Part shown: one piece after another, positions 10,295-25,791 of the stretch
How the letters are laid out: each line of letters begins with the position of its first letter
How positions within the stretch are numbered: position 1 is the first letter of the stretch
Source of the DNA: a virus
Taxonomy: Duplodnaviria; Caudoviricetes
Strand: one strand, 5' to 3'
IMG/VR virus record: IMGVR_UViG_3300033417_000012
Span: 1 to 52,503 of that record
Length of the DNA: 52,503 bases
Notes under the pieces: generated by a model
The model's input: only the letters and a program-made list of their open reading frames with translations
Told to the model about the DNA's origin: nothing
Database searches by the model: none
Position numbers and translations under genes: made by a program

Positions 10295-10311
10295 GTTGCC
10301 TCCTTGGAATC

Positions 10312-10399: not shown

Positions 10400-10404
10400 T
10401 TGTA

Positions 10405-10608
10405 TTATTTGCTTCGGTCCAGTAGCGCGACCAGGTTTTTCAGTTGCTCAACCAGACGCGTTAGCGCGTCTATGATTTGGGACAGTGTAAGGATAACCGC
10501 AAAGAGCATAAAACACACCCCGCCAACAACACTTACGGCAGGGACGCTCTCAAAGTACACAGCGGCTCCGAGTACGGCGATCGTAAATCCCAATGCTGCG
10601 AGTTTCAT
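10405..10608 (-). CDS. Small membrane protein
   Basis: Two TM segments, ATGA coupling. Confidence 0.65.
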   Translation of the reverse strand: MKLAALGFTIAVLGAAVYFESVPAVSVVGGVCFMLFAVILTLSQIIDALTRLVEQLKNLVALLDRSK

Positions 10609-11690: not shown

Positions 11691-11722
11691 GATAGTGCGC
11701 CTCCTTGTGTTGTGGGGTGTGC

Positions 11723-11998
11723 TCATTCCCCGTCGGAAAAAACGCTATTGATCTTCTCAAACACGTACGCCGTCAGATCTCCTTTCTCCAGGTTTACTTT
11801 TCTAAGGGCACGGGACATTGCCATGCGAACAGAGTTGTGTTTGATGTCGATCTGATTCGCGATGTACTTGTTGTCCTTCCCCATAGCCGACAGCTTGAGG
11901 ATAAGAAGCTCGCGCCTGCTCAAGGTGTACTTGTACTCGCGGAACGGCTCGTCAAGAATTCTCCTCAATTCGAGTAGGGTCAGGTCGCTTTCATCCAT
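11723..11998 (-). CDS. LuxR-type HTH transcription regulator
   Basis: LSRRELLILKLSAMGKDNKYIANQIDI. Confidence 0.75.
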   Translation of the reverse strand: MDESDLTLLELRRILDEPFREYKYTLSRRELLILKLSAMGKDNKYIANQIDIKHNSVRMAMSRALRKVNLEKGDLTAYVFEKINSVFSDGE

Positions 11999-13181
11999 CG
12001 CTTTTTTGCCACGCTTTGATGGTGCGCTCTCCAAAGCGTTTGTTCACGCTCTGGTTGTCGTGGTTCTCTCGCGCCCAGGATGTCGTCGCTTCCTTCGCTG
12101 CACTTTCGGATGTCTTGTGCTCCGGTCGAACCGTGTTGTAGATTTCCAGCCAATCGCTGATCCACTTCCAGGGATCATCTTCGCGGAACGGTGACTTGTT
12201 GAGTCTTCCCTCGATTTGCTGAGGCGGGGCGTCGGCGAGTTCCTTGAAGTTTTCCCTGATCTTCGTGACGATTTCGTTTCCCCAGGTGCGAGAGCTTGTT
12301 GGCTTGATCTCTCGCGGTTGCTCGTTATCCCAGGGGTTTGCGTCGGGCCACAGTTCGCTTGCTGCATCGGAGACTACCTTTTTTCTGGCCTCAGCGGTCT
12401 CCTCGTCTTCGATTTCTGCCTCCTTCTCGACCTCGCGCCACTGCGCTTCGGGGATGTACTCCTCGATGGTTTCACCCTTGAAGGAGCCACCAAGCGGAAG
12501 ATCGAACATCTGCTTGATCGCCATCATGTAAGCGCGCTTCTGTGTTCGCTCGACGTGAGTCATTTTGTTACTTGAGTCACGGTCGAGGTTTGCCATTTCC
12601 TCTTTGGTGAGAATTCCGAGACCAAATACGAACGGCGGTTCCGCTCCCAAGCGTCCGAGTCCAATCTCAAGACCCTGTTTGCGCGCTTCGACCACGCTGT
12701 CCACCGCCATCTTCCAGGTCTGTACGGTTTTGTGGTCGTAGATTGCGCACTCCCAGGCCATAGCACCTTCGGGCACACCCAGGGTGTCACGGCGATCCTT
12801 GTCCGTGACCTGCGTGTATTCGGGCCAGAAGTGCGTTCCGCGTTCCTGGGCTTGCTGGTGAGCGTGTCGCAGCAGGCCTCGTCGTCCAGGCATGATCTGG
12901 AATTTTCTTTCACCGTGCTTGGTGACGTACACCCAGGCCCAAATCTCCCCGTTGAATGGGTTCAGTTGGGTCGCTGCGCTGATCTGCGCTAGGTGCGCGG
13001 CCTCCGACGCTTTCATCTTGTGCTTGCCCGTGTCCAGCTGCATGATCCTGCGCGTCATTTCGTGCAGGGCCTTGGATGGACCATAGGGGACAAGCGGGTG
13101 GAGCCACTCGTTTGCGGACTTAACAATCTGCTTGTTAACGTCCACGCCCAAGCTCTCCTCGAACACGGATTCGTCTGTCAT
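11991..13181 (-). CDS. RecT/Bet-like single-strand annealing protein
   Basis: LNPFNGEIW, G..GLLR.A, KRA...AIK..F; acidic C-terminal extension. Confidence 0.65.
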   Translation of the reverse strand: MTDESVFEESLGVDVNKQIVKSANEWLHPLVPYGPSKALHEMTRRIMQLDTGKHKMKASEAAHLAQISAATQLNPFNGEIWAWVYVTKHGERKFQIMPGRRGLLRHAHQQAQERGTHFWPEYTQVTDKDRRDTLGVPEGAMAWECAIYDHKTVQTWKMAVDSVVEARKQGLEIGLGRLGAEPPFVFGLGILTKEEMANLDRDSSNKMTHVERTQKRAYMMAIKQMFDLPLGGSFKGETIEEYIPEAQWREVEKEAEIEDEETAEARKKVVSDAASELWPDANPWDNEQPREIKPTSSRTWGNEIVTKIRENFKELADAPPQQIEGRLNKSPFREDDPWKWISDWLEIYNTVRPEHKTSESAAKEATTSWARENHDNQSVNKRFGERTIKAWQKSDG

Positions 13182-13272
13182 TTGTAGTACCTCCTGTGTG
13201 CTAGGGGTCGATCCGAATTGATCGCCCACGACCGCACCCTACGTTGTAAGGTGCGGAACGTCGAAGATCAAT

Positions 13273-13509
13273 TTATAGCGACCAGTCCTTCGACGACTTG
13301 TATCGCCCTGCGACATAGGTCATGCCGCAGTCGGTTACGAATGTCACTTCACCGTCGGTGTCTCCAACCGGCTCCGATAATGTGCGCTCGCACTCCACGT
13401 TGAACAGATCGAGAAATTCTTGCGTACCCTTAAGGTCGGTGATGCGCGCTTTGCAAGCTCTGTGATTTGGGCACTCCCCCTCGAACAGCACGGGGATGGG
13501 GTTGCTCAT
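13273..13509 (-). CDS. Hypothetical protein
   Basis: AGGAGG RBS, coupling. Confidence 0.55.
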   Translation of the reverse strand: MSNPIPVLFEGECPNHRACKARITDLKGTQEFLDLFNVECERTLSEPVGDTDGEVTFVTDCGMTYVAGRYKSSKDWSL

Positions 13510-13908
13510 TTGCGGCCTCCTTTCACGGGCCAGTTGGGGTGATAGACCTTGATGGTTTCACCTTCAGGATGCGAGTCCTCCGGTCGCGCTACGCGGACGA
13601 AGGATTTCAGTTTGGGCCAAGCTCGGAATACCGCTTCATCTGCTATCTGCGGATCGCCTGTCAGTTGATAGCGCAGCGTCCACAGTTTTACTAGCGCGTC
13701 ATGGTCGGGCGTACTCACTTCGTTTCGTCCTTCCAGCCGCACTTCTCGCAGCGCTCAGAGGGGGGGTCTAAATCCTCGCCGCACTCCGGGCAAATCCCAT
13801 TTTCCAGACAGACGCACATTTCCAGCAAACGTTCGTATGCGACGGTCGATCCCCAGGGGTGCGCCTGGGATGTTTCTATCCAGCCTCTTCCCATGCAGTA
13901 TTCGCACA

Positions 13909-14106
13909 TCATTGTTGCTCCCTCTCTGCCCATCTCACGCGGTCTATCAGCAGCATGGGACACCACTGATTGAGTTTCGCCCACTCCCTTAGCGCCCTGA
14001 GTTCTAATTCTGTAACTTCTATGGGCGTGCAACCGGAGGATGGTTTTTCGTTGAAGCTCGCTGTTCCATCGTAGTAATTGTGTACGTCAACATATATCGT
14101 CGGCAT
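13909..14106 (-). CDS. Hypothetical protein
   Basis: Operon context. Confidence 0.5.
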   Translation of the reverse strand: MPTIYVDVHNYYDGTASFNEKPSSGCTPIEVTELELRALREWAKLNQWCPMLLIDRVRWAEREQQ

Positions 14107-14120
14107 GTTATCCCCTTTCT

Positions 14121-14414
14121 CTATGGCTCATCCTTGATGAACAGCATGTTTTCGCTGTCCTTGATTTTGTATAGCACTCCAGGAATGTCGTAGGTCATTC
14201 TGAAAAACTCACACTGCACGGCGTGAACCCTACCGTCCTCGTGATGACGCGCCAGCTTCAATTGAATGGGCCAAGCGGTGATTTTCAGATCGCTCAACAG
14301 AAAACCACCAGACACATTGATGTCCCTGGCGTCCACCTCGACGATTCCGTTTTCGTTTGGTTCAACGTCTGGCTTATGCACATACACTTCGGGCATTTCA
14401 CGATCTCCTTTCAC
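14121..14414 (-). CDS. Hypothetical protein
   Basis: AAGGAG RBS near MPEVY. Confidence 0.55.
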   Translation of the reverse strand: MKGDREMPEVYVHKPDVEPNENGIVEVDARDINVSGGFLLSDLKITAWPIQLKLARHHEDGRVHAVQCEFFRMTYDIPGVLYKIKDSENMLFIKDEP

Positions 14415-14522
14415 CTGTTTGTGGATTTGTCACAGAACGCGCCAGGATTGAATCTAAGCGATTCGGTGATGGATCACCCGTTACCCACAGAAAAACCGCT
14501 ATTAGGTCCCATTATGCGCTCT

Positions 14523-14912
14523 CTAGTGGTTCCCTGACATAAATTGTGCACTGAATTCCACGACCGAGAGCACAAAGGACAACTGATGCAGGTTCATGAC
14601 GCCGTTTTCGTCGTCGCTGACATAGGGTTTGAGGCGCACATGAAGTGCATAGGCGGGTGAGGTCGGGATAGCGGGTCCGTGCTTGGTCTCTTTGTCGCCC
14701 CATACCAGCAGGAAAAACAGGAAGAATAGTGGTTCAACTTGCCAGCGGTCGAATTCATGCAGCACGTCGAGTGCGGCTGCTGATGCTAGGTCTTCGCGCT
14801 CCTCTTCGTTTCTGGCAAACTGGATGCGGTGCGCGTGCTCTCTGGTGATGGGGTCGAGTCGTTTGCGCAGTTGTCGCGCGCGGTCGATCATCAAAATGTT
14901 TTTGTGTGGCAT
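14523..14912 (-). CDS. Hypothetical protein
   Basis: AAGGA RBS before MPHKN. Confidence 0.55.
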   Translation of the reverse strand: MPHKNILMIDRARQLRKRLDPITREHAHRIQFARNEEEREDLASAAALDVLHEFDRWQVEPLFFLFFLLVWGDKETKHGPAIPTSPAYALHVRLKPYVSDDENGVMNLHQLSFVLSVVEFSAQFMSGNH

Positions 14913-14933
14913 TCGATTTGTCCTTTCGTGTGT

Positions 14934-15140
14934 ACCTACCCCCACCTACCCTACCCCCCCTGCCAGCCATCTGTGGGGTTGCGGTGCGTTAAGGCTGTGG
15001 TGGGCTGTGGGCTGTACCTACCCCCTATCTACCCACCCTACCCACCCACCCTACCCCCTGCCGTTTTTCGCGAGGGCGGCTGTGGGCTGTGTGGCGGCTG
15101 TGGGCTGTGTGGCTGTGCGCTTTTCCCGATATAGGGAAAA
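14934..15140. repeat. Cluster of TACCC and GGCTGTG polar repeats plus palindrome TTTTCCCGATATAGGGAAAA
   Basis: Directly visible low-complexity motif cluster. Confidence 0.85.
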
Positions 15141-15267
15141 TTGCCGGAGCCGTGCCGGTGGGCGAACTCCGTGCCGGTGGGCGAGGGTTTTGAGCGTCGC
15201 CAAGGGCAAGCAGCCAGGGATCGGGGCGCGCTTCACCCTTCTCCCTGGCTACACTTTCCTGGGTGCA

Positions 15268-15543
15268 CTAATGGTCGATCCAGCCGGTCGTGTCTTTGCC
15301 CTGTCGGTCGAGCAGCTTATAGATGCGGTTTTGGGCGTAGTTCGGGGGCAACCAGTGACCGTTTTCGCACAGGCAGGATGCTACGGCGATGTCGGATAGC
15401 GTGATCTCGTTGTAGCGCCCTTCCGTGTGCTTGACGTAGAGGTCGTTGGCCCACTTCGAGACCTGTGGCGACGATTTTTCATAGTGGACGACGATTCGCC
15501 CGAAAAAATACTCGACCTCGCTGAAAAACTGGATGGCGTTCAT
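15268..15543 (-). CDS. Hypothetical protein
   Basis: ATGA coupling, MNAIQFF start. Confidence 0.6.
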   Translation of the reverse strand: MNAIQFFSEVEYFFGRIVVHYEKSSPQVSKWANDLYVKHTEGRYNEITLSDIAVASCLCENGHWLPPNYAQNRIYKLLDRQGKDTTGWIDH

Positions 15544-15773
15544 CGATCGCCGTCCTTTCCGTACCATGTGGCCTCGACCCACTCAAGCGTGCCCGGAATC
15601 TGTCGTTCGTTTCTGATGTCCGCGCCATAGGATGCGAAGATAAAGCGGGTGAGGTTTCGGCGTGACGGGTTGATGTATGTCTTTTGCCTTGGATGGGCGT
15701 TAACATAGACGTTCTGCTGCCCGTTGAATTCGTTCAGGTCGATCAGGCAGGTCTTTGGATAGTATTTGCCCAT
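15540..15773 (-). CDS. Hypothetical protein
   Basis: MGKYYPK start right after radC-like stop. Confidence 0.6.
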   Translation of the reverse strand: MGKYYPKTCLIDLNEFNGQQNVYVNAHPRQKTYINPSRRNLTRFIFASYGADIRNERQIPGTLEWVEATWYGKDGDR

Positions 15774-15774
15774 G

Positions 15775-16260
15775 TCAGAACCCCAAACCTCTCGCTTTGA
15801 GCGACACGAAGCGCCCTTTGCCGATGATGATGTGGTCGAGCAACTGGATTCCAAGCAACCTTCCGGCATCAGCGATTTCTGCGGTCACGCCCACGTCTTC
15901 TGGGCTTGGACTTGGGTCGCCGCTTGGGTGGTTGTGAACCACGATGATCGCGGCGGCGTTCTTGATGATCGCGTCTCGAAACACCTCGGCGATGCGCACC
16001 ATGTTGCTGTTGAGTGTGCCTTTGTAAAGCTCCACGATCTCGATGACGCCGTTGCGAGAGTCCAGTATGGCGACGCGAAAGTGTTCCTGTTGAAGCGCCG
16101 ACATTTCGTAAAGCAGCAGCGCTGCAACGCTTTCGGGCGCATCGAATCTCACGCGGTTCGGCTGGTCCTCTGCGACCTCTCGAAGAACGCCCATAAGACC
16201 ACCGAGATCGCCATTGCATATCATGGTTGCGACCTCCTGGGCATTGTCCTTGTAGGACAT
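15775..16260 (-). CDS. radC: RadC-like JAB/MPN domain protein
   Basis: QEHF...VHNHPSGDPSPSPED...LLDHIIIG. Confidence 0.9.
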   Translation of the reverse strand: MSYKDNAQEVATMICNGDLGGLMGVLREVAEDQPNRVRFDAPESVAALLLYEMSALQQEHFRVAILDSRNGVIEIVELYKGTLNSNMVRIAEVFRDAIIKNAAAIIVVHNHPSGDPSPSPEDVGVTAEIADAGRLLGIQLLDHIIIGKGRFVSLKARGLGF

Positions 16261-16349
16261 TGTGCACCTCCTGTGTGCCTAATTAGGGTCGGATCACCCT
16301 CGGACAGGGCGCTGCCAGCGAACAGCGCCCTGCTGCGACGGAGATCGAC

Positions 16350-16838
16350 CTATCTCCTACCGTTTTGCCAGGGCATAATCAGCGCCCTGCGTTTGTGCGT
16401 GGTGAACTCTTTGGCGCCTTCCAGAACGTAGGCCCTGTTCTTGCGGGTCTGCTTGATGGCGACGAAGCGGAGACCCTTTCCGATGTCGGCGAAGAAGGCC
16501 GGGTCGATGTCGAAGCTCTCGATGGGGATGGGCGACCCTTCTTGGTGGTACTCCCACAGGCCGTCGATGTCAGGGTATTGGCCCTCGTAGGGGCGAAGGG
16601 TGATGGTCCCGTTGTTCAGGTGGCTATGAACCAGTTGGTACAGGCCCGGTTCCACTTTGAGATCGACTTCGTTGAGGTCGGCGCGGTGTGCTCTAATACC
16701 GTCACTGGCGTCGAGCGTTGCGCCCGTCCAGCGGATCGCGGACAACACGGATTCGTTGTCCTTTTTCTTGGTGGCGAGGGCGACCCATCGCGCGGTCTCG
16801 ATGACCTTTTTCTCGGCATTGATGGTCGTTTCGTTCAC
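16350..16838 (-). CDS. Beta-sliding-clamp-like single-domain protein
   Basis: VLSAI...ASDGIRAH...EGQYPD pattern; GTG start after leader motif. Confidence 0.5.
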   Translation of the reverse strand: MNETTINAEKKVIETARWVALATKKKDNESVLSAIRWTGATLDASDGIRAHRADLNEVDLKVEPGLYQLVHSHLNNGTITLRPYEGQYPDIDGLWEYHQEGSPIPIESFDIDPAFFADIGKGLRFVAIKQTRKNRAYVLEGAKEFTTHKRRALIMPWQNGRR

Positions 16839-16927
16839 GATTGCACCTCCTGAGTGCTTTTTGTTGGGGGCGAATTCCCCAGGGACGCCCTGGAACCTGC
16901 GCTCCAGGGCGTGACCTTGAAAATTCG

Positions 16928-17263
16928 CTACCATCCTGGCGGGGACCAAAGCTCGCTTTCGAAGGCGCTCTTGAGTACCCGTCGCCATGCTTTACCGTAC
17001 CTTCGGCAACACACGCAGACACAGTTCTGGCTATAGGGGTGGTTCTCCAGTTCCGGCTTGTACCAAGTGGCGACGATCCAGGTTCGCCCCATGTCTTCGT
17101 ATGTGTCCTTGTAGGTGGCGCTGTCCACCAGTTTTTGCAGTCGCTTCATGCTCGATGGCGTTGGGTTTTCGTGCACCCGATAGTCGCCCCCGATTCTGCT
17201 GTTGGGATAGACATAAACGGCGCGTTCGTCCTGGTATAGCCCCGCAACCACTGTCTTAGTCAT
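16928..17263 (-). CDS. Hypothetical early protein
   Basis: Coupled to upstream gene. Confidence 0.6.
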   Translation of the reverse strand: MTKTVVAGLYQDERAVYVYPNSRIGGDYRVHENPTPSSMKRLQKLVDSATYKDTYEDMGRTWIVATWYKPELENHPYSQNCVCVCCRRYGKAWRRVLKSAFESELWSPPGW

Positions 17264-17450
17264 CGCCCTTCTCCAGTAGCCGGTCGAGGTATTCCGACGC
17301 CGCTTCTAGGTTTCCTTCGAGCGTGCCTTGGGACTCCATGTCCTCAAACTCGCGTTCGGCCATAGCGATATTGCGCTTGGCCTCGTCGTAGGAGAAGCCC
17401 ATATCGATCAAGTTGAGTATCGATATGTACTGCCAGCATCTGTCGCTCAT
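17256..17450 (-). CDS. Small acidic early protein
   Basis: GGAGG RBS, coupling. Confidence 0.6.
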   Translation of the reverse strand: MSDRCWQYISILNLIDMGFSYDEAKRNIAMAEREFEDMESQGTLEGNLEAASEYLDRLLEKGDD

Positions 17451-17779
17451 GACGCCCTCCGTGTTTCGGAGTGGTCGTCGTTGACGCCCGTTGCTTCGTC
17501 GAGGAGCGCCGATTCATCGTCCAGGCCATCGAAGAAACCACCGTACTCGGCGTCTTCGAGCATGACAGCTGCGCCGTCCAGGTCATCCCCAAGAAGATCC
17601 ATAAGGATGCCGGAAAGCTCTGCTCGAATCGGGTTGCCAGTCTGGTTGCACTTGAACCCAATGCCCGTACAACCCTTGGAGTAAAACGCGTCCTTGGCCT
17701 CCTTGAAGGTCATGCCGGGTATGTCGTGGAGTTCGTCAAGCCCTAGCGGTTCGCCGCAGCGCCTACAATAGATGTCCAT
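17447..17779 (-). CDS. Acidic zinc-binding early protein
   Basis: MDIYCRRCGEP; leader motif upstream. Confidence 0.7.
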   Translation of the reverse strand: MDIYCRRCGEPLGLDELHDIPGMTFKEAKDAFYSKGCTGIGFKCNQTGNPIRAELSGILMDLLGDDLDGAAVMLEDAEYGGFFDGLDDESALLDEATGVNDDHSETRRAS

Positions 17780-17884
17780 TTGTGCACCTCCTGAGTGCTT
17801 GGGCCGTATTGCCCAGGGGTGCGCAGGAACCTACCCTACCCAGGTAGGCTCCTGCGCACAGTCTGGATCATACGACGACGACGG

Positions 17885-18550
17885 CTATGCAGTTTCGGCT
17901 GTGGGCTGTGGAGCGAAGTTGTCCTGCCAGCGCTTGCTTTCGGGCTTTGACCACCCTGGCGTTTCCTTTACCCGCCGAACAGGGCGACTCGACATGATGA
18001 ATCGTTCAAGCTCATCCATGTTGTTGTTGGCGAAGACCTTGGTGATGAGGTCCTTCGCCTGTTCCTCGGTTCGGGCGATCACGGTTTCCCAATGACGCAC
18101 ACTGCCTTCCACCTTGTCTTTGTCAACCATCCAGCCTGGGTACTCATTCGGCGGGAAGTCGAGGTAGGTGGAGATCGGCGTGAGGCCGTTGGTCCGGCCG
18201 TCGTTGACGACCTCGGTGGCGATGTCTTCAAGCCTGTTGCACAACTCGATGGGCGTCGGGGTGCTGTTTTCTTCTTTCGGCATGACCCGATACACCACGG
18301 CGGTCGCGTCTTTCCATTCCTGGCGGGTGCTGCTTTCGCTAGGCTCGATGCTCATGCCGTACCAGTGGGTCGCTTCGCTGTCGGTCTGCCACCGAAAGGT
18401 GACAACGGGCCGAAAGTACGGGCTGCTGTTCCAGTGAACCAGCGAAATGTCACGCCAGATCCGAACAAAGCCGATTGTGTAACGGCCCTCATGACGAATC
18501 CAGGTATCGAAGGCGAGCTTGGTCTTGATAGCCATTTTTCCGTTCAACAC
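17885..18550 (-). CDS. Hypothetical early protein
   Basis: Leader motif immediately upstream. Confidence 0.7.
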   Translation of the reverse strand: MLNGKMAIKTKLAFDTWIRHEGRYTIGFVRIWRDISLVHWNSSPYFRPVVTFRWQTDSEATHWYGMSIEPSESSTRQEWKDATAVVYRVMPKEENSTPTPIELCNRLEDIATEVVNDGRTNGLTPISTYLDFPPNEYPGWMVDKDKVEGSVRHWETVIARTEEQAKDLITKVFANNNMDELERFIMSSRPVRRVKETPGWSKPESKRWQDNFAPQPTAETA

Positions 18551-18634
18551 GTTGCACCTCCTGAGTGCGGTTGTTGGGGCTGGATTGCCCCCGCACGCCC
18601 CCTTCCCGATATAGGGAAAGGGGCGCTCCGGCGA

Positions 18635-18880
18635 TCATCCAGCTTTTATCCTAAGTCCGGCGTCCAGTCCTTCGCCAAGCAGGGTATTGATTATTCTGCC
18701 TGACGCTCTCTCAACGATAGCGAAATCGTTCATGCCCCAGGGGACCAGCCGGTATCTCTGTCGAAATACCCGCTGGCCCTTCTGTCCGATACGCCGGTAG
18801 TGTTCCACACCATATCGTTGCAGGGTGGCGATACCCCCCAACCTACCCCGTTCTGCCGGTGTCATCGGTCTGTCGCTCAT
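18635..18880 (-). CDS. KGG-repeat-like basic protein
   Basis: ERGRLGG...RRIGQKG. Confidence 0.55.
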   Translation of the reverse strand: MSDRPMTPAERGRLGGIATLQRYGVEHYRRIGQKGQRVFRQRYRLVPWGMNDFAIVERASGRIINTLLGEGLDAGLRIKAG

Positions 18881-19092
18881 GCAGGCTGCACCTCCCTCGC
18901 AAGGGCTGTGTAGATGCGACCCAAGCGCTTGTGCCCGCACGGGGTTTCGCCGCTGAACCAGTCGTTGTGAAACTGGAGAACGGCGACTGCACCTTCGCGT
19001 TGCGCCTTCGTCATTTGGGAGATGGCGTCCCGAAGCTGCTGTTCTGCTTGCTTGGCGTTATCGTCCCATTCCTGCGCGTTGAACTGTGCCAT
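18877..19092 (-). CDS. Hypothetical early protein
   Basis: MAQFNAQEW after leader motif. Confidence 0.7.
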   Translation of the reverse strand: MAQFNAQEWDDNAKQAEQQLRDAISQMTKAQREGAVAVLQFHNDWFSGETPCGHKRLGRIYTALAREVQPA

Positions 19093-19173
19093 GATGTGCA
19101 CCTCCTGTGTTCTAAGGCCCGGATTGGCCTCCCTCCGCGTTGGAGCACGCGCTCCAACGCGGAAGGCGATCAA

Positions 19174-19395
19174 TCAGAGATTCCAGACATTGGGCGAGTC
19201 CGTGAAAGCGACCAGGAGTTTCAGGTCGCCCACCTCGTTTCCGATAGCCTGGATGGTTCGATTGACAAACGTTTCCTGCGATGGCGTCAGGTCGTACCCC
19301 TTGATGGCGTGTACCTGACGTTGCGCCTGTTCGAGCGTTTGGACTGCAAGCTCGATGCGCCCGACTGCTGCTTGGAATTCCTCTTTCGCTGCCAT
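19174..19395 (-). CDS. Hypothetical early protein
   Basis: MAAKEEF start after upstream stop. Confidence 0.55.
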   Translation of the reverse strand: MAAKEEFQAAVGRIELAVQTLEQAQRQVHAIKGYDLTPSQETFVNRTIQAIGNEVGDLKLLVAFTDSPNVWNL

Positions 19396-19399
19396 GATG

Positions 19400-19648
19400 T
19401 CAGAGTCCAGTCCCGATCCAGGGCCGCTTGGAAGCTGCTGCCCTGATCGCTTTGGTTGTTTCTTCGATGGCGGTGTCGAGGTGGAGGATGACATCCTGGT
19501 ACAGGCTATACAGGTCTTCACGGCTCACGTCGTCGTTCTCGATCAGCCATGTAAGGTCTTCTTCCATGCCTGCGTGTGCAGACTGGAGGTACTGTCGAGC
19601 GGCGACCATCTTTGCGCTGTACTTTGCGAGGTTGGCCTTGACAGTCAT
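19400..19648 (-). CDS. Hypothetical early protein
   Basis: GGGGGTG RBS, MTVKANL. Confidence 0.55.
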   Translation of the reverse strand: MTVKANLAKYSAKMVAARQYLQSAHAGMEEDLTWLIENDDVSREDLYSLYQDVILHLDTAIEETTKAIRAAASKRPWIGTGL

Positions 19649-19652
19649 GGCG

Positions 19653-19934
19653 TCACCCCCGCTTCCAGGGGTTCTTGAACGGCGTGTTGCTTTCGAAGCG
19701 TCGCCTGTCCCTGTCAAACTCGTTCACGTAGTCGCCACGGGCGTTCATCAGGTCTTCCACAGAGCAGCCACCCTGTTTCACGAACGCCATCGCGTCACAG
19801 TCTTCCTCCAGATAGGCGTAGTTCCTATCGTAGAAGCTGTACGCCGTGAAGGTCATGCCCTCAACGGCTTCGATGGGTACGGACAGCCATGCGTGACCAG
19901 GATCCTGGATCCAACGAACGTCTTTTGTTGCCAT
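19653..19934 (-). CDS. Conserved-looking phage early protein (DPGHAW...YLEEDCD)
   Basis: Leader motif upstream; motif typical of phage hypotheticals. Confidence 0.7.
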   Translation of the reverse strand: MATKDVRWIQDPGHAWLSVPIEAVEGMTFTAYSFYDRNYAYLEEDCDAMAFVKQGGCSVEDLMNARGDYVNEFDRDRRRFESNTPFKNPWKRG

Positions 19935-20025
19935 GTTGCACCTCCTGAGTGCGAATGTGATAGGTCTGGATTGACCTACCCATTCAGCCTTGCAAGTACC
20001 CTACCCTGCAAGGCTGAGGGGGCTT

Positions 20026-20358
20026 TCAATCCTGTGCTTGGGCCATGCGAGCGATCACCGGCTGTGCGGTGTCGAGAACCCATGCGATCTCGGCGGCTAC
20101 TTCGTTGAGAACCAGCGATTCGAGGTAACAGGCGACCCGATGCTTGCAGATCACCCCTTCGGCGCTGCGGTACACGCTGTCCGGGCATTCGCAGGTTTCA
20201 ATGGACGCGTTGTACTGCGATCGCCAGCTTTGGTCGTCTTGCATTAGATACCCCAAAGCGGCGCGCAGTCGTTTGTCATCGAGGAAACCCTTGCGCCGTT
20301 CGATATTGAAGTAGCCCATCAAGATCGACAGATGAAGCGGATTGTGCCTGTCGATCAC
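20026..20358 (-). CDS. SWIM-type zinc-finger protein
   Basis: CECPD...CKH. Confidence 0.7.
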   Translation of the reverse strand: MIDRHNPLHLSILMGYFNIERRKGFLDDKRLRAALGYLMQDDQSWRSQYNASIETCECPDSVYRSAEGVICKHRVACYLESLVLNEVAAEIAWVLDTAQPVIARMAQAQD

Positions 20359-20430
20359 GGTGCACCTCCCTGGCGAGGGGATACCCTACCCGAAGGATAC
20401 CCCCTTCGCCCTTCCACCCTGGGTCAGCCG

Positions 20431-20547
20431 GTGGGCTGTGTGACCCTGGGCTGTGCGGCTGTGTACCCTACCCTACCCTACCCGCTGCCTTTTGAGCTTT
20501 CGAGGCGCATAGGCTGTGGGCGGCTGTATTACGGCTGTGCGGCTGTG
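20431..20547. repeat. Second cluster of GGCTGTG and (TACCC)4 repeats
   Basis: Directly visible. Confidence 0.85.
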
Positions 20548-20776
20548 CAAAGATCGCGCGACGCCGCCGAGCGCCGGGCTCGCCCAGCGAGTGGTTAGGC
20601 GGGTGCCGGAGCCATGCGCATAGTCGAAATGCCCAGGGCAAACCTGGGCGCGCGGATAGGGCCGAGTGCAAGGTCATTTAACGACCTTGCACCATGCGCG
20701 ACCGCGTTGGTCGCGCATGGTGCAAGATTCAGGAGCACGCGCGGTCGCGCGTGCTCCTGCTAGTGCACTCCTGATT

Positions 20777-21166
20777 TTACTTGTCGCGTTTTGTCGCTAT
20801 GACCTGATTGCGCAGTACAATCGCGTTCTCAGGATATTCGACTGAATCGAGAGATTCGATAAACTGCGCAATCTCGCTAGCCGCGCGCTTAAATGGTCGC
20901 GTGCGGATTGCAACAACACCCGCGTTTTCGTGCTCCGCGTCGCGCGGTGCGCGCGCTTGCAATTCGCGTGCAAGTTTTGCAAGGGTTGTTTTGTTGGATG
21001 CAAGGTCACAGTAAAAATACTTGCTTGACTCGCGGATTGACTCGCGGATTGCATCCGCGACCTTCGCGCCGATTTTAGTGCTTGCAATCGAATCGAGCAT
21101 AGATTCGACGTGCGGGCGCGTGTTGCTAGCAAAGTACAATCTTAAATACGCTTCGTTCTTAGCCAT
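20777..21166 (-). CDS. Hypothetical basic early protein (start MAKNEAY)
   Basis: UAUGAC-UCAGGAG-GUCAUA leader at 21172-21190. Confidence 0.7.
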   Translation of the reverse strand: MAKNEAYLRLYFASNTRPHVESMLDSIASTKIGAKVADAIRESIRESSKYFYCDLASNKTTLAKLARELQARAPRDAEHENAGVVAIRTRPFKRAASEIAQFIESLDSVEYPENAIVLRNQVIATKRDK

Positions 21167-21256
21167 GATCTTATGACCTCCTGAGTCATACAATCGCGAA
21201 TCCGGATTGACTCGCGTGCTCCGCGTTGCAATCACTTGCAACGCGGAACACGTGAT

Positions 21257-21403
21257 TCAATTTATAGAACAAATAGCATATGGAATGCATCCGCGAATAA
21301 AACCTACAATAAACGACCCGTCTTCAAATAGCATATAACCGGCCGATTGCACAAATATTGCAAGGTCGAAAACGCGGATTATCAGGAGCACGATTAATAA
21401 CAT
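21257..21403 (-). CDS. 48-aa hydrophobic peptide (not in ORF track)
   Basis: MLLIVLLIIRVFDLAIFVQSAGYMLFEDGSFIVGFIRGCIPYAICSIN; starts 2 nt after upstream stop. Confidence 0.55.
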   Translation of the reverse strand: MLLIVLLIIRVFDLAIFVQSAGYMLFEDGSFIVGFIRGCIPYAICSIN

Positions 21404-21405
21404 GG

Positions 21406-21546
21406 TCACATTCCCGCGGCGATTGCGTTAATCGCGTTGGTCGCGATTGCAATCACGTCGAATCCCAAACGCGATGCAATCCATAACGCGCCAGCGAAAA
21501 CGAATAGAACGTAAAAGGTCGAAAACGTTCCAGCGCTGATTCTCAT
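21406..21546 (-). CDS. 46-aa membrane peptide, first gene of early arm (not in ORF track)
   Basis: AGGAGG RBS; MRISAGTFSTFYVLFVFAGALWIASRLGFDVIAIATNAINAIAAGM. Confidence 0.6.
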   Translation of the reverse strand: MRISAGTFSTFYVLFVFAGALWIASRLGFDVIAIATNAINAIAAGM

Positions 21547-21559
21547 CTCAGAAGACCTC

Positions 21560-22051
21560 CTGCAATGTCACGCGTGACGGATTCACGCGTTTTAAAGCTT
21601 GCAAGTGTAAGATGACCTTGCAAGCTTTAAAACGCGTAGAAACGTTTTCAGACGTTTCTACGCGCGTGTTTTCAGAAGGTGCACTCAGGAGATTCGTATT
21701 TCAGCGCGACCGCGCGACCTTGACAGTCTGGCCTACACCACGGAAACCGTTTCTACTCCGCGCGTTCATAGTCTCGCGCATCATGTTTTGATGCACTCCC
21801 AATTTGTGCGCGCGTCCGTCAAACGTACCGCGCCGGTGTAGGATGCTGCTAGGGTTCTATTCGCGTTTCGGAAACTTTCGGAAATGATTGCGACGCGACC
21901 GCGGATTCGTCCTTCAACGCGTGGTCGCGGGATAGTCGCACTATCCTGGTCGCGCCGTTCGCGTGTCTGTCATCTCTGGTCGCACGGTATAGTGATACCC
22001 TTATGGAGAGGGGTCGTTTCCGCGCCTGGTTGTTAAGGTGCTCAATCCAAC
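21560..22051 (-). ncRNA. Long structured 5' leader of early arm
   Basis: No credible ORF; 21-bp perfect stem 21585-21637; stem 21732-21739/21835-21842; boxA-like GCACCTTAACAA near its 5' end. Confidence 0.5.
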
Positions 22052-22054
22052 TTG

Positions 22055-22084
22055 ATAATACACCATTTGTGACGTTTTGTAACA
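22055..22084 (-). promoter_or_regulatory. Putative early promoter (-10 TATTAT) with overlapping imperfect palindrome TGTGAC-N5-GTAACA
   Basis: AT-rich patch at head of leftward arm; -35 is weak. Confidence 0.45.
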
Positions 22085-22447
22085 TACGCTTACATTAAAG
22101 ATTCTGAGCACTCGCGCGCCCACGTTTTGATGCTATGTCATAGCAGGAGCATATATCATGCTATGCGAATCACCTTATGACCTTGCACTCTCATTAATCC
22201 GCGTTCTCTCGATTCGTTTTCGCGCTTTGCTTTGCGCTCCGCGTTCCATGATTCGAATCGTGCGAATCGTTGTGGCGCGCCGCCCCCGCGCCCACGCGCC
22301 TGCTCCGCGTGGAATGCGAATCCGTGGGTTGGGCGCGCCCAGGATGACCATTAATACACTTAAATGATAGGGCCGAATCTCGCGCCGATCATTCCACGAA
22401 TCCGATAATTGCAAGGTCGCGTATTTTAGGATGCAATCATGGCGCGG

Positions 22448-22490
22448 TAGTGATTGCGCATAGTGATTGCGCATAGTGATTGCGCATAGT
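22448..22490. repeat. 13-bp tandem repeat TAGTGATTGCGCA x3, with a partial copy at 22539
   Basis: Directly visible. Confidence 0.9.
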
Positions 22491-22830
22491 CGGGCGCGCC
22501 TGTGCTTGCATGGTAGGGGGGCGCGTGGTCGCGTGGTGTAGTGATTGCGCGCGTGGTGTAGTGCTGGTACGCGCCCGCTCCTGCTATTGCATGATTGCAT
22601 CGCGCGCCTTTGCTTTGCGTTTTGATTCGATTGCCTTCGCCTTTCGATTGCCTGCGCCGACTGGCGGCTGCCTTTTTGGCTCGTTGGCACAGCCGACTGG
22701 CGGCATGGGTTTTCCTCAGGGCGAGCCTTTGTGGCGCGAGCCTTCCCCTCTCCCGAAGTTTTCCAAAAAAATTTTTCTGGGCGAAAATCCGAGAAATGGG
22801 CTAAGATGTGGGGGGAAAGGAGGCAATAGG

Positions 22831-23034
22831 ATGGGCATAAAGCGAAAGACGGCGTACAAGATGGGGATTGATGCGTTGGAAAGGGAGATGGGGAGGATCG
22901 GCGGGGATGGGTATGTGGATGCGCTGTACCCAGGTGCGTTCGTATATGCGGCGAGGATGGGGGAGGAGGTCGAGCGGATGAGGGAGGCGATTCGGATCTT
23001 GGAAAGGGAGATGGACAAAATCGTGGGGGCGTGA
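22831..23034 (+). CDS. Hypothetical protein
   Basis: AAGGAGG RBS, MGIKRK start. Confidence 0.65.
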   Translation: MGIKRKTAYKMGIDALEREMGRIGGDGYVDALYPGAFVYAARMGEEVERMREAIRILEREMDKIVGA

Positions 23035-23056
23035 GAATTGCACAGGAGGTGCGAAG

Positions 23057-23311
23057 GTGGGCGAAACGATCATGCTCGTGCTCGGATTTTTCTTTTTCCT
23101 CGCGGGTGCGTGGTGCTACCTGAGGGCTGAGGGCTTGTACCATTTCGCACGAAGTGTGTTGAGTGAGGAGGAGGCGATTCGTTCGATGCGAGGGGGTCTT
23201 AGCGTGCGTGCGCTGGAAGCGGTGCATAAGCTGAGACAAAGGGAAAACGGGGGTGGGGGGGTTGTGGAAAACCCTGTGGACGGCTTCCTGGGGGTGCGTG
23301 ATGCGCATTGA
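23057..23311 (+). CDS. Membrane-anchored hypothetical protein
   Basis: CAGGAGGTGC RBS; N-terminal TM. Confidence 0.6.
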   Translation: MGETIMLVLGFFFFLAGAWCYLRAEGLYHFARSVLSEEEAIRSMRGGLSVRALEAVHKLRQRENGGGGVVENPVDGFLGVRDAH

Positions 23312-23421
23312 CGAGGACAGGCAAACCGAGGCCGCGGGGTGTGTTGGATTGATCGTGCTTGCGAGCGCGGCGATGCTTGTGTGCGCGCTGTTGTTTGTTT
23401 GCGCGCTCATCGGTTTTTGAA

Positions 23422-24033
23422 ATGGACGATCTTATGTGGGCAAAATTCCCGCACATTGTGACGATTTATTTTCTACTTGCGGTCGCGTTTTATGTGGTGA
23501 GCGGCGACGACCGTTATTCGATTCCGCTGCGCTGGTTCTGCGTGCTTGCGTGTTTGGTCATGCTCACGTTGGGCTTGCTGCAACTGTTCGACTGGATTGG
23601 AAACAGTCGCACCGAGCGCGGTGACGTGCGGAAGCGTACTGCGCTTCTGGATCAGAACACGATGCGGCTGGAGATCATTTCAGCGATGACTCCATCGCAG
23701 CTTGAATTTGCTCGTTGGAATACCGAGGCGATCCAGTGGGAAGTGCTACCCGCAAGCGGTGGTCCGGTCTTCAAGCTCGTTGGCTCGACAATTCCGATGA
23801 GTTTTGTCCGTGAAGTGCTGGCGGACTCGACCGCGACCCACGTTGCACCGCAGCGCAATTATTCAGAAGGCAGCACGGAGCGCGGCTGGTACAACGAGTT
23901 ACTTGGTCTGATGTGCGACCGATGGGGCATGGCGAAGCGCACAACGGGTGGTCCGAAGTCCGCGACCTGGACCGTCGATTACAACCGCGTTCTGTGGCGT
24001 TTCGGAATGCTGGATGAGGAGGCCTTGTCATGA
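23422..24033 (+). CDS. Membrane protein (2 TM) with soluble C-terminal domain
   Basis: Hydrophobic N-terminus; coupled to next gene. Confidence 0.65.
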   Translation: MDDLMWAKFPHIVTIYFLLAVAFYVVSGDDRYSIPLRWFCVLACLVMLTLGLLQLFDWIGNSRTERGDVRKRTALLDQNTMRLEIISAMTPSQLEFARWNTEAIQWEVLPASGGPVFKLVGSTIPMSFVREVLADSTATHVAPQRNYSEGSTERGWYNELLGLMCDRWGMAKRTTGGPKSATWTVDYNRVLWRFGMLDEEALS

Positions 24034-24239
24034 ACGAAATGACAGCGGCCAGGGTTTTGTTGGCAACGAAAGCAAGCGACCCGCGCTTTGCGGTGGCGCT
24101 CAAGGTCCTTGGACCACAATCGCTCCTGCGCGTGAAGAATGCGCTCTCGAACAAACCTGGAACGCGCAGGGAGCGCCGGAAGATCGAGCAGCGTTTCGCT
24201 CGTCTTGAGCGCAAGGACCGAAGGAAGAACAAGACATGA
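24030..24239 (+). CDS. Small basic protein
   Basis: ATGA coupling on both sides. Confidence 0.6.
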   Translation: MNEMTAARVLLATKASDPRFAVALKVLGPQSLLRVKNALSNKPGTRRERRKIEQRFARLERKDRRKNKT

Positions 24240-24934: not shown

Positions 24935-25791
24935 CGCATGAATACCTCAGGGACATCAAGCCACGGATCCTTTGCTCCTATCACTACTTTCGAGGGGAAA
25001 AGCTGCGATCCGACCTTAGCCGCTATTTCGGTCAATTGGACGTGGACGTTTTCGCGGACAGCGGAGCGTTTTCCGTATTTGCATCGGGAGCCACAATCCT
25101 TGTCGATGAATACGTCTTCTGGCTCAAGGAGAACGCGGACCTGATCGAGGTCTATGCGAACCTGGACGTTCACGGCGAGTCTGAGACTACGCTGCACAAC
25201 CAGGAGCGCATGGAAGCGCTCGGCCTATCCCCCATTCCGGTTTATCACGCGGAACTGCCTTTGAGCGTTTTCGAGAGTTACGCGGAGCGCTACCCGTATG
25301 TGGGTGTCGGGGGCGTGGCGGGGATGAAGACGGGGGCCAGACCGTTAATGAATATGTTGTTGCAGATTTTTAAGATTGCGCAGAAACACGGAACCGGACT
25401 GCATGGTTTCGGCCTGACGTCCAGGCACGTTCTCGAAAACTTTCCGTGGAAATCGGTTGACAGTTCGAGTTGGAGCGCATCTTTTCGGTTTGGTCATGTT
25501 CCCGTTTTCCATCCACGAAGGGGGATTTTCTACGACGTTCACATCGGGAACGCCAGATCCTGTTATCGAATGAAAGAGGTGATCGAAGGTTACGGTTTTC
25601 GAGTGGAGGAGTTTGCGGACAGGGAGAAGAACGACCGCAAGCGCACAGCCACGCTTGCATCGCTTTCGTGGTGGGTTGCTGAAGGACACTACCGAAAACG
25701 GCATGGAAGCGACCTAAAGATCTACTTGAGCAACGCGAATCGAGCAGACGATTGGATTTTAATGCCTGAAGTTTTCGGAGAAGCGGCATGA
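24931..25791 (+). CDS. dpdA: DpdA/TGT-like 7-deazaguanine DNA transglycosylase
   Basis: DSGAFS, NLDV, PVYH, VGVGG, LHGFG, SVDSSSW TIM-barrel motifs; next to queC. Confidence 0.7.
   Translation: MTHEYLRDIKPRILCSYHYFRGEKLRSDLSRYFGQLDVDVFADSGAFSVFASGATILVDEYVFWLKENADLIEVYANLDVHGESETTLHNQERMEALGLSPIPVYHAELPLSVFESYAERYPYVGVGGVAGMKTGARPLMNMLLQIFKIAQKHGTGLHGFGLTSRHVLENFPWKSVDSSSWSASFRFGHVPVFHPRRGIFYDVHIGNARSCYRMKEVIEGYGFRVEEFADREKNDRKRTATLASLSWWVAEGHYRKRHGSDLKIYLSNANRADDWILMPEVFGEAA

Follow-up and report, generated by a model that had tools for sequence, protein, structure and literature searches.

RNA phages such as MS2 couple the translation of neighbouring cistrons by long-range RNA pairing, with the end of the upstream reading frame pairing to sequence that adjoins the downstream ribosome-binding site. 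There are four further described systems pertinent to the locus considered here. In the start-associated sequences of Cluster K phages, as portrayed in PMC3203893 and PMC12699233, a short invariant sequence with outer dyad symmetry embeds an SD core a few nt before starts, in many copies per genome, nearly all in one orientation, confined to the non-structural part and accompanied by a single inverted copy, and the genes so preceded have spacers of >50 bp. The inverted repeats of the extended version are reported there as non-compensating and were read as DNA sites. T7-type RNase III sites are rods of imperfectly paired RNA, some two helical turns long and interrupted by small internal loops. 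In the account given by PMC3867540, most T7 transcripts have such a site, the ideal Escherichia coli substrate is 22 bp, and cuts of a single strand leave stabilising 3′ hairpins. T4-type PeSLs, going by the descriptions in PMC2839356 and PMC4122927, are small conserved intergenic stem-loop cassettes that flank orphan genes, bound indels between close relatives, and consist of a strong sigma-70 promoter plus a terminator. CsrA/RsmA hairpins, as characterized in PMC7652899, have a short AC/GU-closed stem, GGA in the loop and overlap with the SD.

The window (the whole stretch of 52,503 nucleotides analysed) is from an uncultivated, siphovirus-like phage. Its first-pass annotation drew attention to a 16-nt SD mini-hairpin, here H3, before early genes; these belong to a leftward operon that is presumably early, to judge by position only. 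The copies of GCAC(U/A)CAGGAGGUGCA on the minus strand between 16.2 and 20.0 kb, ending 2–4 nt before start codons, are real: a search of the whole window allowing up to 3 mismatches gives 9 matches where shuffles lead one to expect 0.54, and 0/100 shuffles reach 9. Four are exact, at 16842..16857 (3 nt before GTG 16838; dG −5.8), 17783..17798 (3 nt before ATG 17779), 18553..18568 (2 nt before GTG 18550) and 19937..19952 (2 nt before ATG 19934); that at 16263..16278 has one mismatch (2 nt before ATG 16260; dG −4.5) and that at 19097..19112 has two, one of them breaking the stem (4 nt before ATG 19092; dG −1.1). The remaining three matches, each with 3 mismatches, are at 13186 (minus; a degenerate H3, 13186–13201, before the RecT gene start at 13181), 21681 (plus) and 37607 (minus, with no start nearby). 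Gene starts, 78 in all, are our own rough predictions, partly picked by SD; on this basis the hairpin GCAC/(U/A)CAGGAG/GUGC is ahead of 5/78 and a variant with a 6-bp stem ahead of one. H3 is restricted to promoter-proximal genes of the leftward operon and is at none of the 35 right-arm genes (23359 onward), which runs counter to its being an ordinary SD equally frequent before late genes. Sites given earlier as variants, at 20361, 18887, 13189 and (plus strand) 23040, are present, but what they have in common is limited to AGGAGGTGC-type cores.

What the first-pass annotation, partly supported overall, had missed is that H3 is the 3′ end of a larger covarying RNA element, an intercistronic cassette of 81–105 nt that fills the spacers before small genes of unknown function. 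It has three parts. The first is a rod comprising a lower stem, in which sequence around the upstream stop codon (the U-strand) is base-paired to a D-strand containing a CAAUCC-type box, and an upper perfect hairpin, H1, whose sequence is different in every copy. The second, H2, is a local hairpin in which the same box pairs with the next 5–8 nt, so that H2 and the lower stem are mutually exclusive. H3, invariant, is the third. The MFE fold has a rod of 24–30 bp in 6/7 canonical cassettes, all on the minus strand: before the RecT start at 13181 (13216..13273; H1 13232–13256; 24 bp), before 16260 (16287..16350; H1 16304–16333; 26 bp), before 16838 (16865..16933; H1 16885–16912; 28 bp; lower stem CGAAUUUUC/GGGGAAUUCG directly 3′ of the UAG stop), before 17779 (17803..17876; H1 17819–17859; 30 bp), before 18550 (18579..18643; H1 18595–18626; 25 bp; lower stem GCUGGAU/AUCCAGC, the final nucleotide being the U of the UGA stop) and before 19934 (19968..20032; H1 19984–20017; 24 bp; lower stem GGAUUGA/UCAAUCC, which holds the upstream UGA stop). 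In the cassette before 19092 the rod is absent from the MFE fold, which retains a 16-bp H1 (19131..19166, minus) and no lower stem, an upstream AAUCUC pairing with the SD. A search of Rfam with the rods gave no match.

Eight cassette regions compared with shuffles have folding z scores of −3.9 to −6.6, with 0/200 shuffles as stable, and folding favours the sense over the antisense strand in 8/8 spacers. Among intergenic spacers of at least 45 nt, all nine that show the cassette arrangement (from the one before 13181 to the one before 21546) have z ≤ −4.3, and the sole other spacer with a value that low, before 8628, is mis-delimited and without a rod. Pairing in the lower stem is specific to the partner. 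Leaving H1 out, the mean for U:D duplexes is −15.9 kcal/mol between cognate strands and −10.4 between non-cognate ones (permutation p 1e-4; 7e-4 in an earlier version of the test), the cognate partner ranks first for 5/7 cassettes, and a box that deviates has a partner that deviates to match (AAUUCG with CGAAUU; AUACG with CGUAU).

H2 is on the minus strand at 13209..13224 (5 bp, loop AAUUCG), 16285..16301 (5 bp, GAUCCG), 16867..16880 (4–5 bp, AAUUCG), 17800..17815 (5 bp, AAUACG), 18576..18591 (5 bp, AAUCCA), 19114..19131 (6 bp, AAUCCG) and 19959..19980 (8 bp, AAUCCA). In nine window copies, chosen by a hairpin scan and hence subject to ascertainment bias, changes on both sides are seen at 7/7 pairs, 84% of cells are paired and 0/500 shuffles reach the score. 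When the U-strand is blocked, 7/7 cassettes form H2, at a cost of 3–13 kcal/mol. For H3 itself covariation evidence is weak, only 3 cells in 11 aligned copies changing on both sides, as also happens in 10–43 of 500 shuffles. H3 stems and flanks are invariant while the H2 stems of the same cassettes vary freely, and such invariance beside a freely covarying neighbour argues for sequence-specific reading, which has also been proposed for Cluster K start-associated sequences (PMC3203893). The features listed above for the latter are found here too. However, the sequences are unrelated (GGGATAGGAGCCC in the published descriptions versus the present 16-mer), as are the phages, a blastn search against deposited phages having given no match, and whereas the extended repeats were read as DNA sites the upstream helices here covary and favour sense RNA.

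A second phage, the distantly related L027, has the same arrangement; its RecT is 47% identical, and it also has DUF932 and RadC in common with the window. L027 has at least 11 cassettes of 66–80 nt with rods of 18–30 bp, arranged as in the window but without H3, and pairing is between a UUGA(A/C)C box, usually containing the UGA stop, and (G/C)UCAAC. Ten L027 H2 copies covary (5/7 pairs change on both sides; 0/500 shuffles reach the score). When cognate and non-cognate partners are compared with the basal box alone, p is 0.06 because the boxes of L027 are conserved; a later, stronger figure was inflated by poor delimitation of H1. A covariance model built from the ten copies detected no window H2 at E < 1 (best 4.5 and 8.7), so that common descent of the cassettes rests on shared architecture and the short shared box. 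The U-box is retained even at sites that have their stop codon in another place (L027 6407 and 11090; L092), and is therefore primarily a pairing element, its role as a stop codon being secondary. L092 is 99.5–99.7% identical to L027 and has one extra 69-codon ORF bounded by cassette copies. These copies are alike over a U-box of 15 nt and over 29 nt of D/H2/SD sequence, and their H1 hairpins are unrelated to each other; cassette-bounded gain or loss of a gene has thus been seen once.

What might such a cassette, whose parts covary and prefer the sense strand, be for? We put at about even odds (roughly 0.5) that it is an RNA element for processing, stability and provision of a standard ribosome-binding site, and a recombination joint as well. 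The rod would be an intercistronic processing or stability element, its two turns offering a double-stranded substrate like that of the RNase III sites found between early genes of T7. Cutting of the lower stem, or its opening by a terminating ribosome, would leave H1 to cap the 3′ end of the upstream message; the freed box would refold into H2, capping the downstream message at its 5′ end, and H3 would present a strong SD of one standard kind. In this way every small gene would carry an expression unit of its own, and the conserved cassette ends could serve as the homology through which gene cassettes are gained and lost. It is rod length and position alone that hint at RNase III, and a passive role of the rod, such as blocking Rho loading, would look identical. 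The likeness to T7-type sites is in the rods, in their place between cistrons of an operon taken to be early, and in the 3′ hairpin that the proposed single-strand cut would leave; the present rods differ in starting on a stop codon, in having an alternative H2 and a fixed SD motif, and in lacking any sequence likeness. The PeSLs are paralleled in the stem-loop cassettes and in the L027–L092 difference, but no promoter or T-run terminator was found in the present cassettes, whose conserved parts are RNA helices and a ribosome-binding site.

A role in translational coupling is compatible with this cassette reading, though as the explanation we consider it rather doubtful. A terminating ribosome would open the lower stem that holds the stop codon, H2 would form and the downstream ribosome-binding site would be activated or handed the ribosome, folded H1 and H2 bringing stop and SD close together; without upstream translation the rod would persist. 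The 5′ strand of the lower stem does overlap, abut or directly follow the stop codon in 6/7 window cassettes, the rod begins upstream of it in 8/11 of L027, there is selection on both competing helices, and with a ribosome footprint modelled on the stop H2 forms in 7/7 cassettes. In two of the seven the SD is also predicted to become more exposed, its unpaired fraction going from 0.10 to 0.60 before 19092 and from 0.33 to 0.60 before 13181. For the other five, however, accessibility is predicted at about 0.6 in both states; every gene has its own strong SD at ideal spacing, and the retention of the U-box away from stop codons also counts against coupling. The SD is, likewise by prediction, mostly unsequestered, which together with repetition at every gene in a DNA phage operon sets the element apart from MS2-type pairing. 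The first-pass annotation had envisaged a translational regulon with an RNA or a protein as reader, and for the former there is a candidate: an inverted copy of the motif in the leader (21674..21696, plus, with an exact 11-mer at 21681–21691), which in the minus transcript reads as the complement of H3. Co-transcribed with the early genes, as a leader or short RNA, it could pair through an exposed stretch with 11–13 nt of H3 at six or more of them and block or time translation, which would explain the invariant flanks beside the freely variable H2 stems. This proposal, also compatible with the cassette reading, is to be taken as tentative and somewhat improbable. The inverted copy is the sole one on the opposite strand, an exact 11-mer where 0.02 exact matches are expected window-wide, and it lies in non-coding sequence upstream of the first leftward gene, predicted mostly unpaired, 12 nt upstream of a 14-bp hairpin (21633–21664) followed by UUUU. 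Predicted duplexes with the six H3 sites (−22.9 to −28.5 kcal/mol) are the top six of 78 initiation regions (median −14.7), but such scores follow by construction from an inverted copy. That strand has just one sigma-70-like site, matching at 9/12 positions (22083–22055), a terminator is called on the plus strand only, and the copy could be what remains of a ribosome-binding site of the plus strand that has decayed. In the 17 kb of L027 that was searched, H3 and the inverted copy are both absent. A parallel is phage Anaya (PMC3203893), with 16 start-associated sequences in one orientation and one inverted copy, in a 385-nt gap and within a hairpin loop; the fold there is no better than shuffles (z −1.1).

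That the reader is a protein, a CsrA/RsmA-type one of the host or a phage RNA-binding protein that binds the GGA-loop H3 (or H2) and represses the set, we regard as distinctly unlikely. The CsrA likeness noted earlier is genuine in that H3 has a 4–5 bp stem, AC/GU closing pairs and GGA in the loop, features of the SELEX-derived ligands as given in PMC7652899, and invariant flanks would suit it; it falters in the loop, which is of 5–7 nt and not the 6-nt ARGGAU of the SELEX consensus, and in the absence of the ACA-R-GGA spacing that is invariant in the SELEX set described there. A scan of some 60 predicted proteins found no CsrA or other RNA-binding Pfam family, a 69-aa protein with an arginine-rich tail (24030–24239, plus) has no PDB or Pfam match, and the H2 ‘loop’ is accounted for by U-strand pairing. 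Transcriptional elements, be they terminators or attenuators, a nut/boxB-like antiterminator site or a PeSL-like terminator-promoter unit, are highly improbable. Strong hairpins do lie directly 3′ of stop codons, PeSLs too flank orphan genes and mediate indels (PMC2839356 and PMC4122927), and the phi21 boxB hexaloop CUAACC, as it appears in PMC12550061, loosely resembles the L027 box. Yet no T run comes after any of the cassette hairpins; there are 13 terminator-like sites versus 14.3 expected, with none at H1, and 4 sigma-70-like sites versus 5.1 expected, with none within cassettes, where an internal promoter would in any case start transcripts within or downstream of the conserved SD. Lambda-type antitermination calls for a single site in an operon and not for a site at each gene, and both the G-U pairs and the preference for the sense strand speak for RNA. 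Scarcely credible is that there is nothing special, the motif being no more than the host's usual strong SD, multiplied by recent spacer duplication. The SD common throughout the window is AGGAGG or GGAGG, and the six copies do span just 3.7 kb, but the flanks GCAC(U/A)C and GCA are absent from all other predicted starts; H1, lower stems and H2 have completely diverged while the 16-mer is unchanged, and the exact 16-mer has a single match in each of only 19 unrelated IMG/VR contigs.

Outlying relatives of the cassette remain to be mentioned. At 21172..21190 (minus, before ATG 21166; dG −6.0) the 6-bp stem TATGAC/GTCATA with the TCAGGAG loop unchanged is present as first described, though the argument drawn from it for selection on structure rests on this one copy and on weak covariation; it is preceded by an 8-bp H2 with loop AAUCCG (21195..21216, minus), itself preceded by a 16-bp hairpin. 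Before the first gene of the leftward operon a 7-bp H2-like hairpin (21570..21590, minus; loop AAUCCGU) is followed by AGGAGG and ATG 21546. On the plus strand, an H3-like SD hairpin, TTGCAC-AGGAG-GTGCGA (23038..23058; dG −6.4, 0/200 shuffles), is before GTG 23057, the start of the first rightward gene. With no SD after it, an H2-type hairpin of 8 bp and loop AAUCCG (16740..16761, minus) lies inside the gene 16838–16350.

Between the small genes of its leftward operon the phage carries a repeated sense-strand RNA element, here called the cassette, in which two competing and covarying helices are combined with a fixed ribosome-binding motif. The motif (H3, a 16-nt SD mini-hairpin), GCAC(U/A)CAGGAGGUGCA, is exactly as the first-pass annotation reported it, with four exact copies, one with a single mismatch and one with two. 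These six are all on the minus strand, at 16,263-19,952, with 2-4 nt between the motif end and the start codon; relaxing the search to 3 mismatches gives nine matches in the window against 0.54 expected from shuffles. The variant at 21172-21190, with its 6-bp stem TATGAC/GTCATA and unchanged loop, is likewise present as described. Starts of other genes have plain AGGAGG or GGAGG without the H3 flanks, and of the right-arm genes, 35 in number from 23359 onward, not one is preceded by the hairpin. The reading of the motif as the ordinary SD context of the host, which would be equally common at late genes, therefore fails. The flanks lie, we presume, outside the usual pairing of an SD with the 3′ end of 16S rRNA.

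Folded in isolation, exact H3 copies reach −5.8 kcal/mol, the 21172 variant −6.0 and a plus-strand relative before 23057 −6.4, with the copy at 19097 at just −1.1 and those at 13186 and 18887 not predicted to form the mini-hairpin. The compensatory stem change that had been claimed is real in the 21172 copy, but as covariation it is thin: over 11 aligned copies three cells are changed on both sides, all from that one copy, and the score is equalled by 10-43 of 500 shuffles. H3 stems are otherwise invariant, whereas the stems of H2, a second hairpin of the same cassettes, vary freely, which suggests that the H3 sequence itself is read, and not its shape alone. The exact 16-mer has 19 single matches in IMG/VR, on contigs without tblastx likeness to the window, and these are taken as chance matches.

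Each H3 copy closes a spacer of 81-105 nt between genes, and these spacers have predicted folds far more stable than those of shuffled sequence. In eight cassette regions the fold z-scores are −3.9 to −6.6, with none of 200 shuffles as stable, and folding is better in the sense than in the antisense strand in all eight spacers. Among spacers of at least 45 nt, some of whose lengths are wrong where genes overlap, all nine before the starts 13181 to 21546 have z ≤ −4.3, and the sole other one to do so, before 8628, is mis-delimited and has no rod of the kind described below. Upstream of H3 are H1, a long perfect hairpin, and H2, which is short, with stems that vary and the loop AAUCCR, AAUUCG, GAUCCG or AAUACG. 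In nine window copies of H2, both-side changes occur in 7 of 7 pairs and 84% of cells are paired (32-48% in slid controls), the covariation score being reached by none of 500 shuffles; the choice of copies by a hairpin scan biases the percentage paired and not the partner-specific shuffle test. A perfect 8-bp H2-type hairpin with the loop AAUCCG is also found at 16740-16761 (minus), within the coding region of gene 16838-16350 and with no SD after it.

When the upstream context is included in folding, the predicted partner of the H2 loop and 5′ arm is the stop-codon region of the upstream gene, at the stop or just after it. Predicted lower stems of this kind are GGAUUGA:UCAAUCC (with the UGA stop inside), GCUGGAU:AUCCAGC, CGAAUUUUC:GGGGAAUUCG and GUCGUAU:AUACGGC. 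In six of seven canonical cassettes the lower stem encloses H1 to give a single imperfect rod of 24-30 bp; in the seventh, before 19092, the upstream AAUCUC pairs with the SD instead. With H1 excluded, cognate lower-stem duplexes have a mean of −15.9 kcal/mol and non-cognate ones a mean of −10.4, and the cognate partner is the best for five of the seven (permutation p 1e-4; p 7e-4 in an earlier version), so that the variant H2 ‘loops’ are compensated by their own upstream partners. Lower stem and H2 are mutually exclusive: with the upstream strand blocked, H2 forms in 7/7 cassettes at a cost of 3-13 kcal/mol. Rfam, searched at gathering and E-value thresholds, matched nothing meaningful, and the CAAUCC-type box of the lower stem combined with the 16-mer had no match in the metagenome and genome collections. 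DNA contigs of four sediment or soil runs carry this sequence in pieces, and as none of the helices shows a variant they afford no population-level test of covariation; the runs listed as containing the sequence include none of RNA.

What might such an arrangement do? The most likely role of the rod is that of a processing signal, in form like the RNase III sites of early T7 RNA, which lie between early cistrons and have about two helical turns with small internal loops. A rod of at least about 20-22 bp with internal loops is found in 6 of 7 cassettes here, beginning at the stop codon. In one account of RNase III the ideal substrate is of 22 bp, and the 3′ hairpins left by single-strand cuts are described as stabilisers (PMC3867540). 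We infer a signal for both processing and stability between cistrons: once the rod is cut, or is opened by a ribosome at termination, the upstream message would be left with H1 as its cap, while on the 5′ side of the downstream message the box would refold into H2, and H3 would offer a single standard SD. The main alternative is a switch that couples translation of neighbouring genes and is worked by the ribosome as it terminates, which may coexist with processing; in simple calculations the predicted accessibility of the SD changed in just two of the seven cassettes. It is possible that a CsrA-type protein binds H3. The likeness to CsrA/RsmA sites noted earlier is partly borne out, exact H3 copies having GGA in the loop of a short AC/GU-closed hairpin, but the loop is CAGGA or (U/A)CAGGAG with CA abutting GGA, so that the six-nt ARGGAU loop and the invariant ACA before R-GGA, both given for CsrA ligands (PMC7652899), are unmatched; the roughly 60 predicted phage proteins that were scanned include no CsrA.

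Other readers of the box were considered and set aside. The phi21 boxB loop is given as CUAACC (PMC12550061), which prompted the idea of a protein-binding, boxB-like H2 loop; this was rejected as the main reading on finding that the loop pairs with the stop region instead. Nut sites of the lambda type number one or two per operon, and their boxB loop is read by N protein, while the cassettes number one per gene, and no N-like family was found in Pfam and PDB searches. An arginine-rich 69-aa protein tried as an N-like reader had no PDB or Pfam support. That protein, encoded at 24030-24239 (plus), has a strongly Arg/Lys-rich C-terminal tail and a net charge of +14. Pairing of the H2 loop with the 16S 3′ region was also discarded: the boxes of the two phages that have them would need different registers, and the partner in cis explains the boxes.

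One inverted copy of the H3 motif is present in the window, an exact 11-mer at 21681-21691 (plus; 0.02 exact matches expected window-wide) within about 1.4 tandem inverted motif lengths at 21674-21696, and a minus-strand transcript of it would read as the complement of H3. Most of it is predicted to be unpaired, and 12 nt separate it from a downstream 14-bp hairpin that has UUUU after it. Of 78 initiation regions, the six H3 sites have the best predicted duplexes with it, a ranking that arises because it is an inverted copy of the motif, and the only promoter-like site on the minus strand here is a weak match at 22083-22055. That an antisense RNA from this leader would read H3 is an unlikely proposition. 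Were it right, it would be a simple, portable switch of the whole gene set, operating at the ribosome-binding site. We are similarly doubtful of the wider scheme in which an anti-H3 RNA would time the early accessory genes and account also for the start-associated sequences (SAS) of Cluster K mycobacteriophages, with rod and H2 as a two-state switch worked by terminating ribosomes.

SAS have been without an assigned function since 2011, and they have conserved positions for which pairing with the 3′ end of 16S rRNA does not account. H3 resembles them in being short, asymmetric and invariant with the SD core inside, in copy number, in start-adjacent placement in one orientation, in preceding non-structural genes only and in having long spacers, with SAS at 3-7 nt and H3 at 2-4 nt upstream of start codons. 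However, the H3 sequence is unlike the SAS consensus GGGATAGGAGCCC and the phage is outside Cluster K, so that H3 is SAS-like in its working and not a member of the family. The extended SAS are described as having 17-bp imperfect inverted repeats upstream with departures uncompensated (PMC3203893), whereas the helices upstream of H3 compensate. An unrelated phage thus presents a motif of the SAS kind within an RNA element with covarying helices, and given those helices, mutants of stem, box and motif can be designed directly. Single inverted SAS sites are remarked on in the SAS paper (PMC3203893), and phage Anaya (L103) agrees: it has 16 SAS in one orientation and one inverted copy, at 31871-31883 (minus), which lies just after an intrinsic terminator where gp96 and gp97 are 385 nt apart. 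The inverted copy is in the 10-nt loop of a hairpin with a 7-bp CGCGCGG/CCGCGCG stem, whose fold is not better than that of shuffles; a transcript running rightward would present this copy as an exposed anti-SAS.

A second lineage has a comparable architecture. RecT homologues are at most about 50% identical, and their profile retrieved a metagenome contig, L027, with a RecT of 47% identity, shared DUF932 and RadC and a GC content of about 62%. Upstream of RecT it has at least 11 cassettes of 66-80 nt, in which a UUGA(A/C)C box, usually holding the UGA stop and kept downstream where the stop is elsewhere, and its partner (G/C)UCAAC enclose a variable hairpin in rods of 18-30 bp. Its alternative hairpin has the loop AACCG and is followed directly by GGAGA and the start codon; over 10 copies, five of seven pairs are changed on both sides, with the score reached in 0 of 500 shuffles. 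No H3-type motif was found on L027, and a covariance model of its hairpins retrieved the window copies only at non-significant E-values of 4.5 and 8.7. Cognate preference of the basal box by itself gives p = 0.06 there, and the L027 part of the H1-excluded test is inflated by poor delimitation of H1. What the two phages have in common, then, is the architecture and a short UCAA-type box, a likeness that falls short of demonstrable sequence homology of the element, and the cassette is seen in these two lineages only.

The L027-type cassette pattern has 22 loci in IMG/VR, of which one, on the near-twin L092, is the only relative. L092 is 99.5-99.7% identical to L027 and has one extra 69-codon ORF flanked by two cassette copies, which have an identical 15-nt upstream box and 29-nt box/H2/SD stretch but unrelated H1 hairpins. 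The cassette ends that fold in RNA are thus also the bounds of an indel between near-identical relatives. An indel bounded by cassette copies is as in PeSL, the promoter and terminator cassettes described for T4-type phages (PMC2839356, PMC4122927), with the proviso that it is seen between L092 and L027 and not in the phage of the window. A strong sigma-70-like early promoter belongs to PeSL; here promoter-like sites number four against 5.1 expected at 12.5-24.5 kb, none of them in a cassette. T-run terminators are not enriched and none is in a cassette; the terminator scan listed no H1, and the strong hairpins that cassettes do have are all without a T run, a rule that may not be that of the host. 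Taken whole, the cassette is a combination of features of T7 processing sites and of PeSL shuffling cassettes, uniting post-transcriptional control of early genes with the modular shuffling of orphan genes, usually treated apart; in the literature searched, with searches aimed at other subjects, no description of a combined element of this kind was found.

In IMG/VR the RecT profile found only L025, an unrelated phage contig of 43% GC without the cassette, and in genome_contigs it had no match, so that it gives no lead to a host. L025 has a start-associated repeat of its own at 6793-17551 (plus), GAAAAAGGAGCCCAAAA, directly before ATG, of which five copies are present at 3 mismatches or fewer where 0.17 would be expected; its core GGAGCCC is the 3′ part of the Cluster K SAS consensus. 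Single-protein searches with RecT or a 221-aa ORF found no related loci, and blastn in distant mode found no deposited phage resembling the region or the terminase-portal genes.

With its 52,503 bases the window is the whole of a linear IMG/VR virus record, which is estimated to be 73% complete. On our own gene predictions (codon scores and SD-guided starts), the plus-strand right arm, from ~23 kb, encodes terminase, tape-measure protein and other virion proteins, and the minus-strand left arm, from ~21.5 kb down to 1.5 kb, encodes RecT, DUF932 and RadC-like proteins and many small ORFs. We infer that the leftward operon is early from its position adjoining the divergent non-coding region at 21.5-23.0 kb. 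Ten cassette-gene ORFs at 16.3-21.2 kb gave just two sub-threshold matches in Pfam and PHROGs, and a search for tRNA genes found none. Among central genes at 25788-28483 there are matches to Pfam QueC, Vut_1 (of the queuosine-precursor transporter type), glycosyltransferase 2 and MptE-like, families placed in the region and not ORF by ORF; the set hints at DNA modification of the 7-deazaguanine type.

The leftward operon has further repeats. GGGTAGGGTA occurs nine times with up to one mismatch (0.84 expected) at 14947-20483, every copy being on the minus strand within 14.9-20.5 kb, and four units overlap at 20464-20483, while two cassettes have copies within their H1 hairpins; the repeat could be G-quadruplex-forming or protein-binding. 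A non-coding stretch of 418 nt within the operon, 20359-20776 (minus), has two long perfect hairpins, one of 13 and one of 18 bp, together with CACAGCC repeats and the GGGTA run, is without an Rfam match and could be a non-coding RNA or an origin. Inside it, some 40 nt at 20539-20579 are at much higher depth in all four metagenome runs, on contigs unrelated on both sides; this sequence, common to other organisms, could be an attachment core or a chance GC-rich likeness. The second gene of the operon, 20777-21166 (minus), has CAATCCGCGAGT twice in tandem and further CAATCC copies in its coding sequence. Overlapping the control region is a 411-codon ORF at 22175-23410 (minus), which has 53 arginines, is rich in Ser, Pro and His and looks non-coding. 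The control region itself, 21547-23056, is large, divergent and non-coding; it has a palindromic hairpin at 21633-21664, which has the form of a terminator when read on the plus strand, four exact copies of GTGATTGCGC at 22450-22550 (three in tandem with a 13-nt period) and other GATTGC-type repeats, and its repeats are likely to be operators or iterons.
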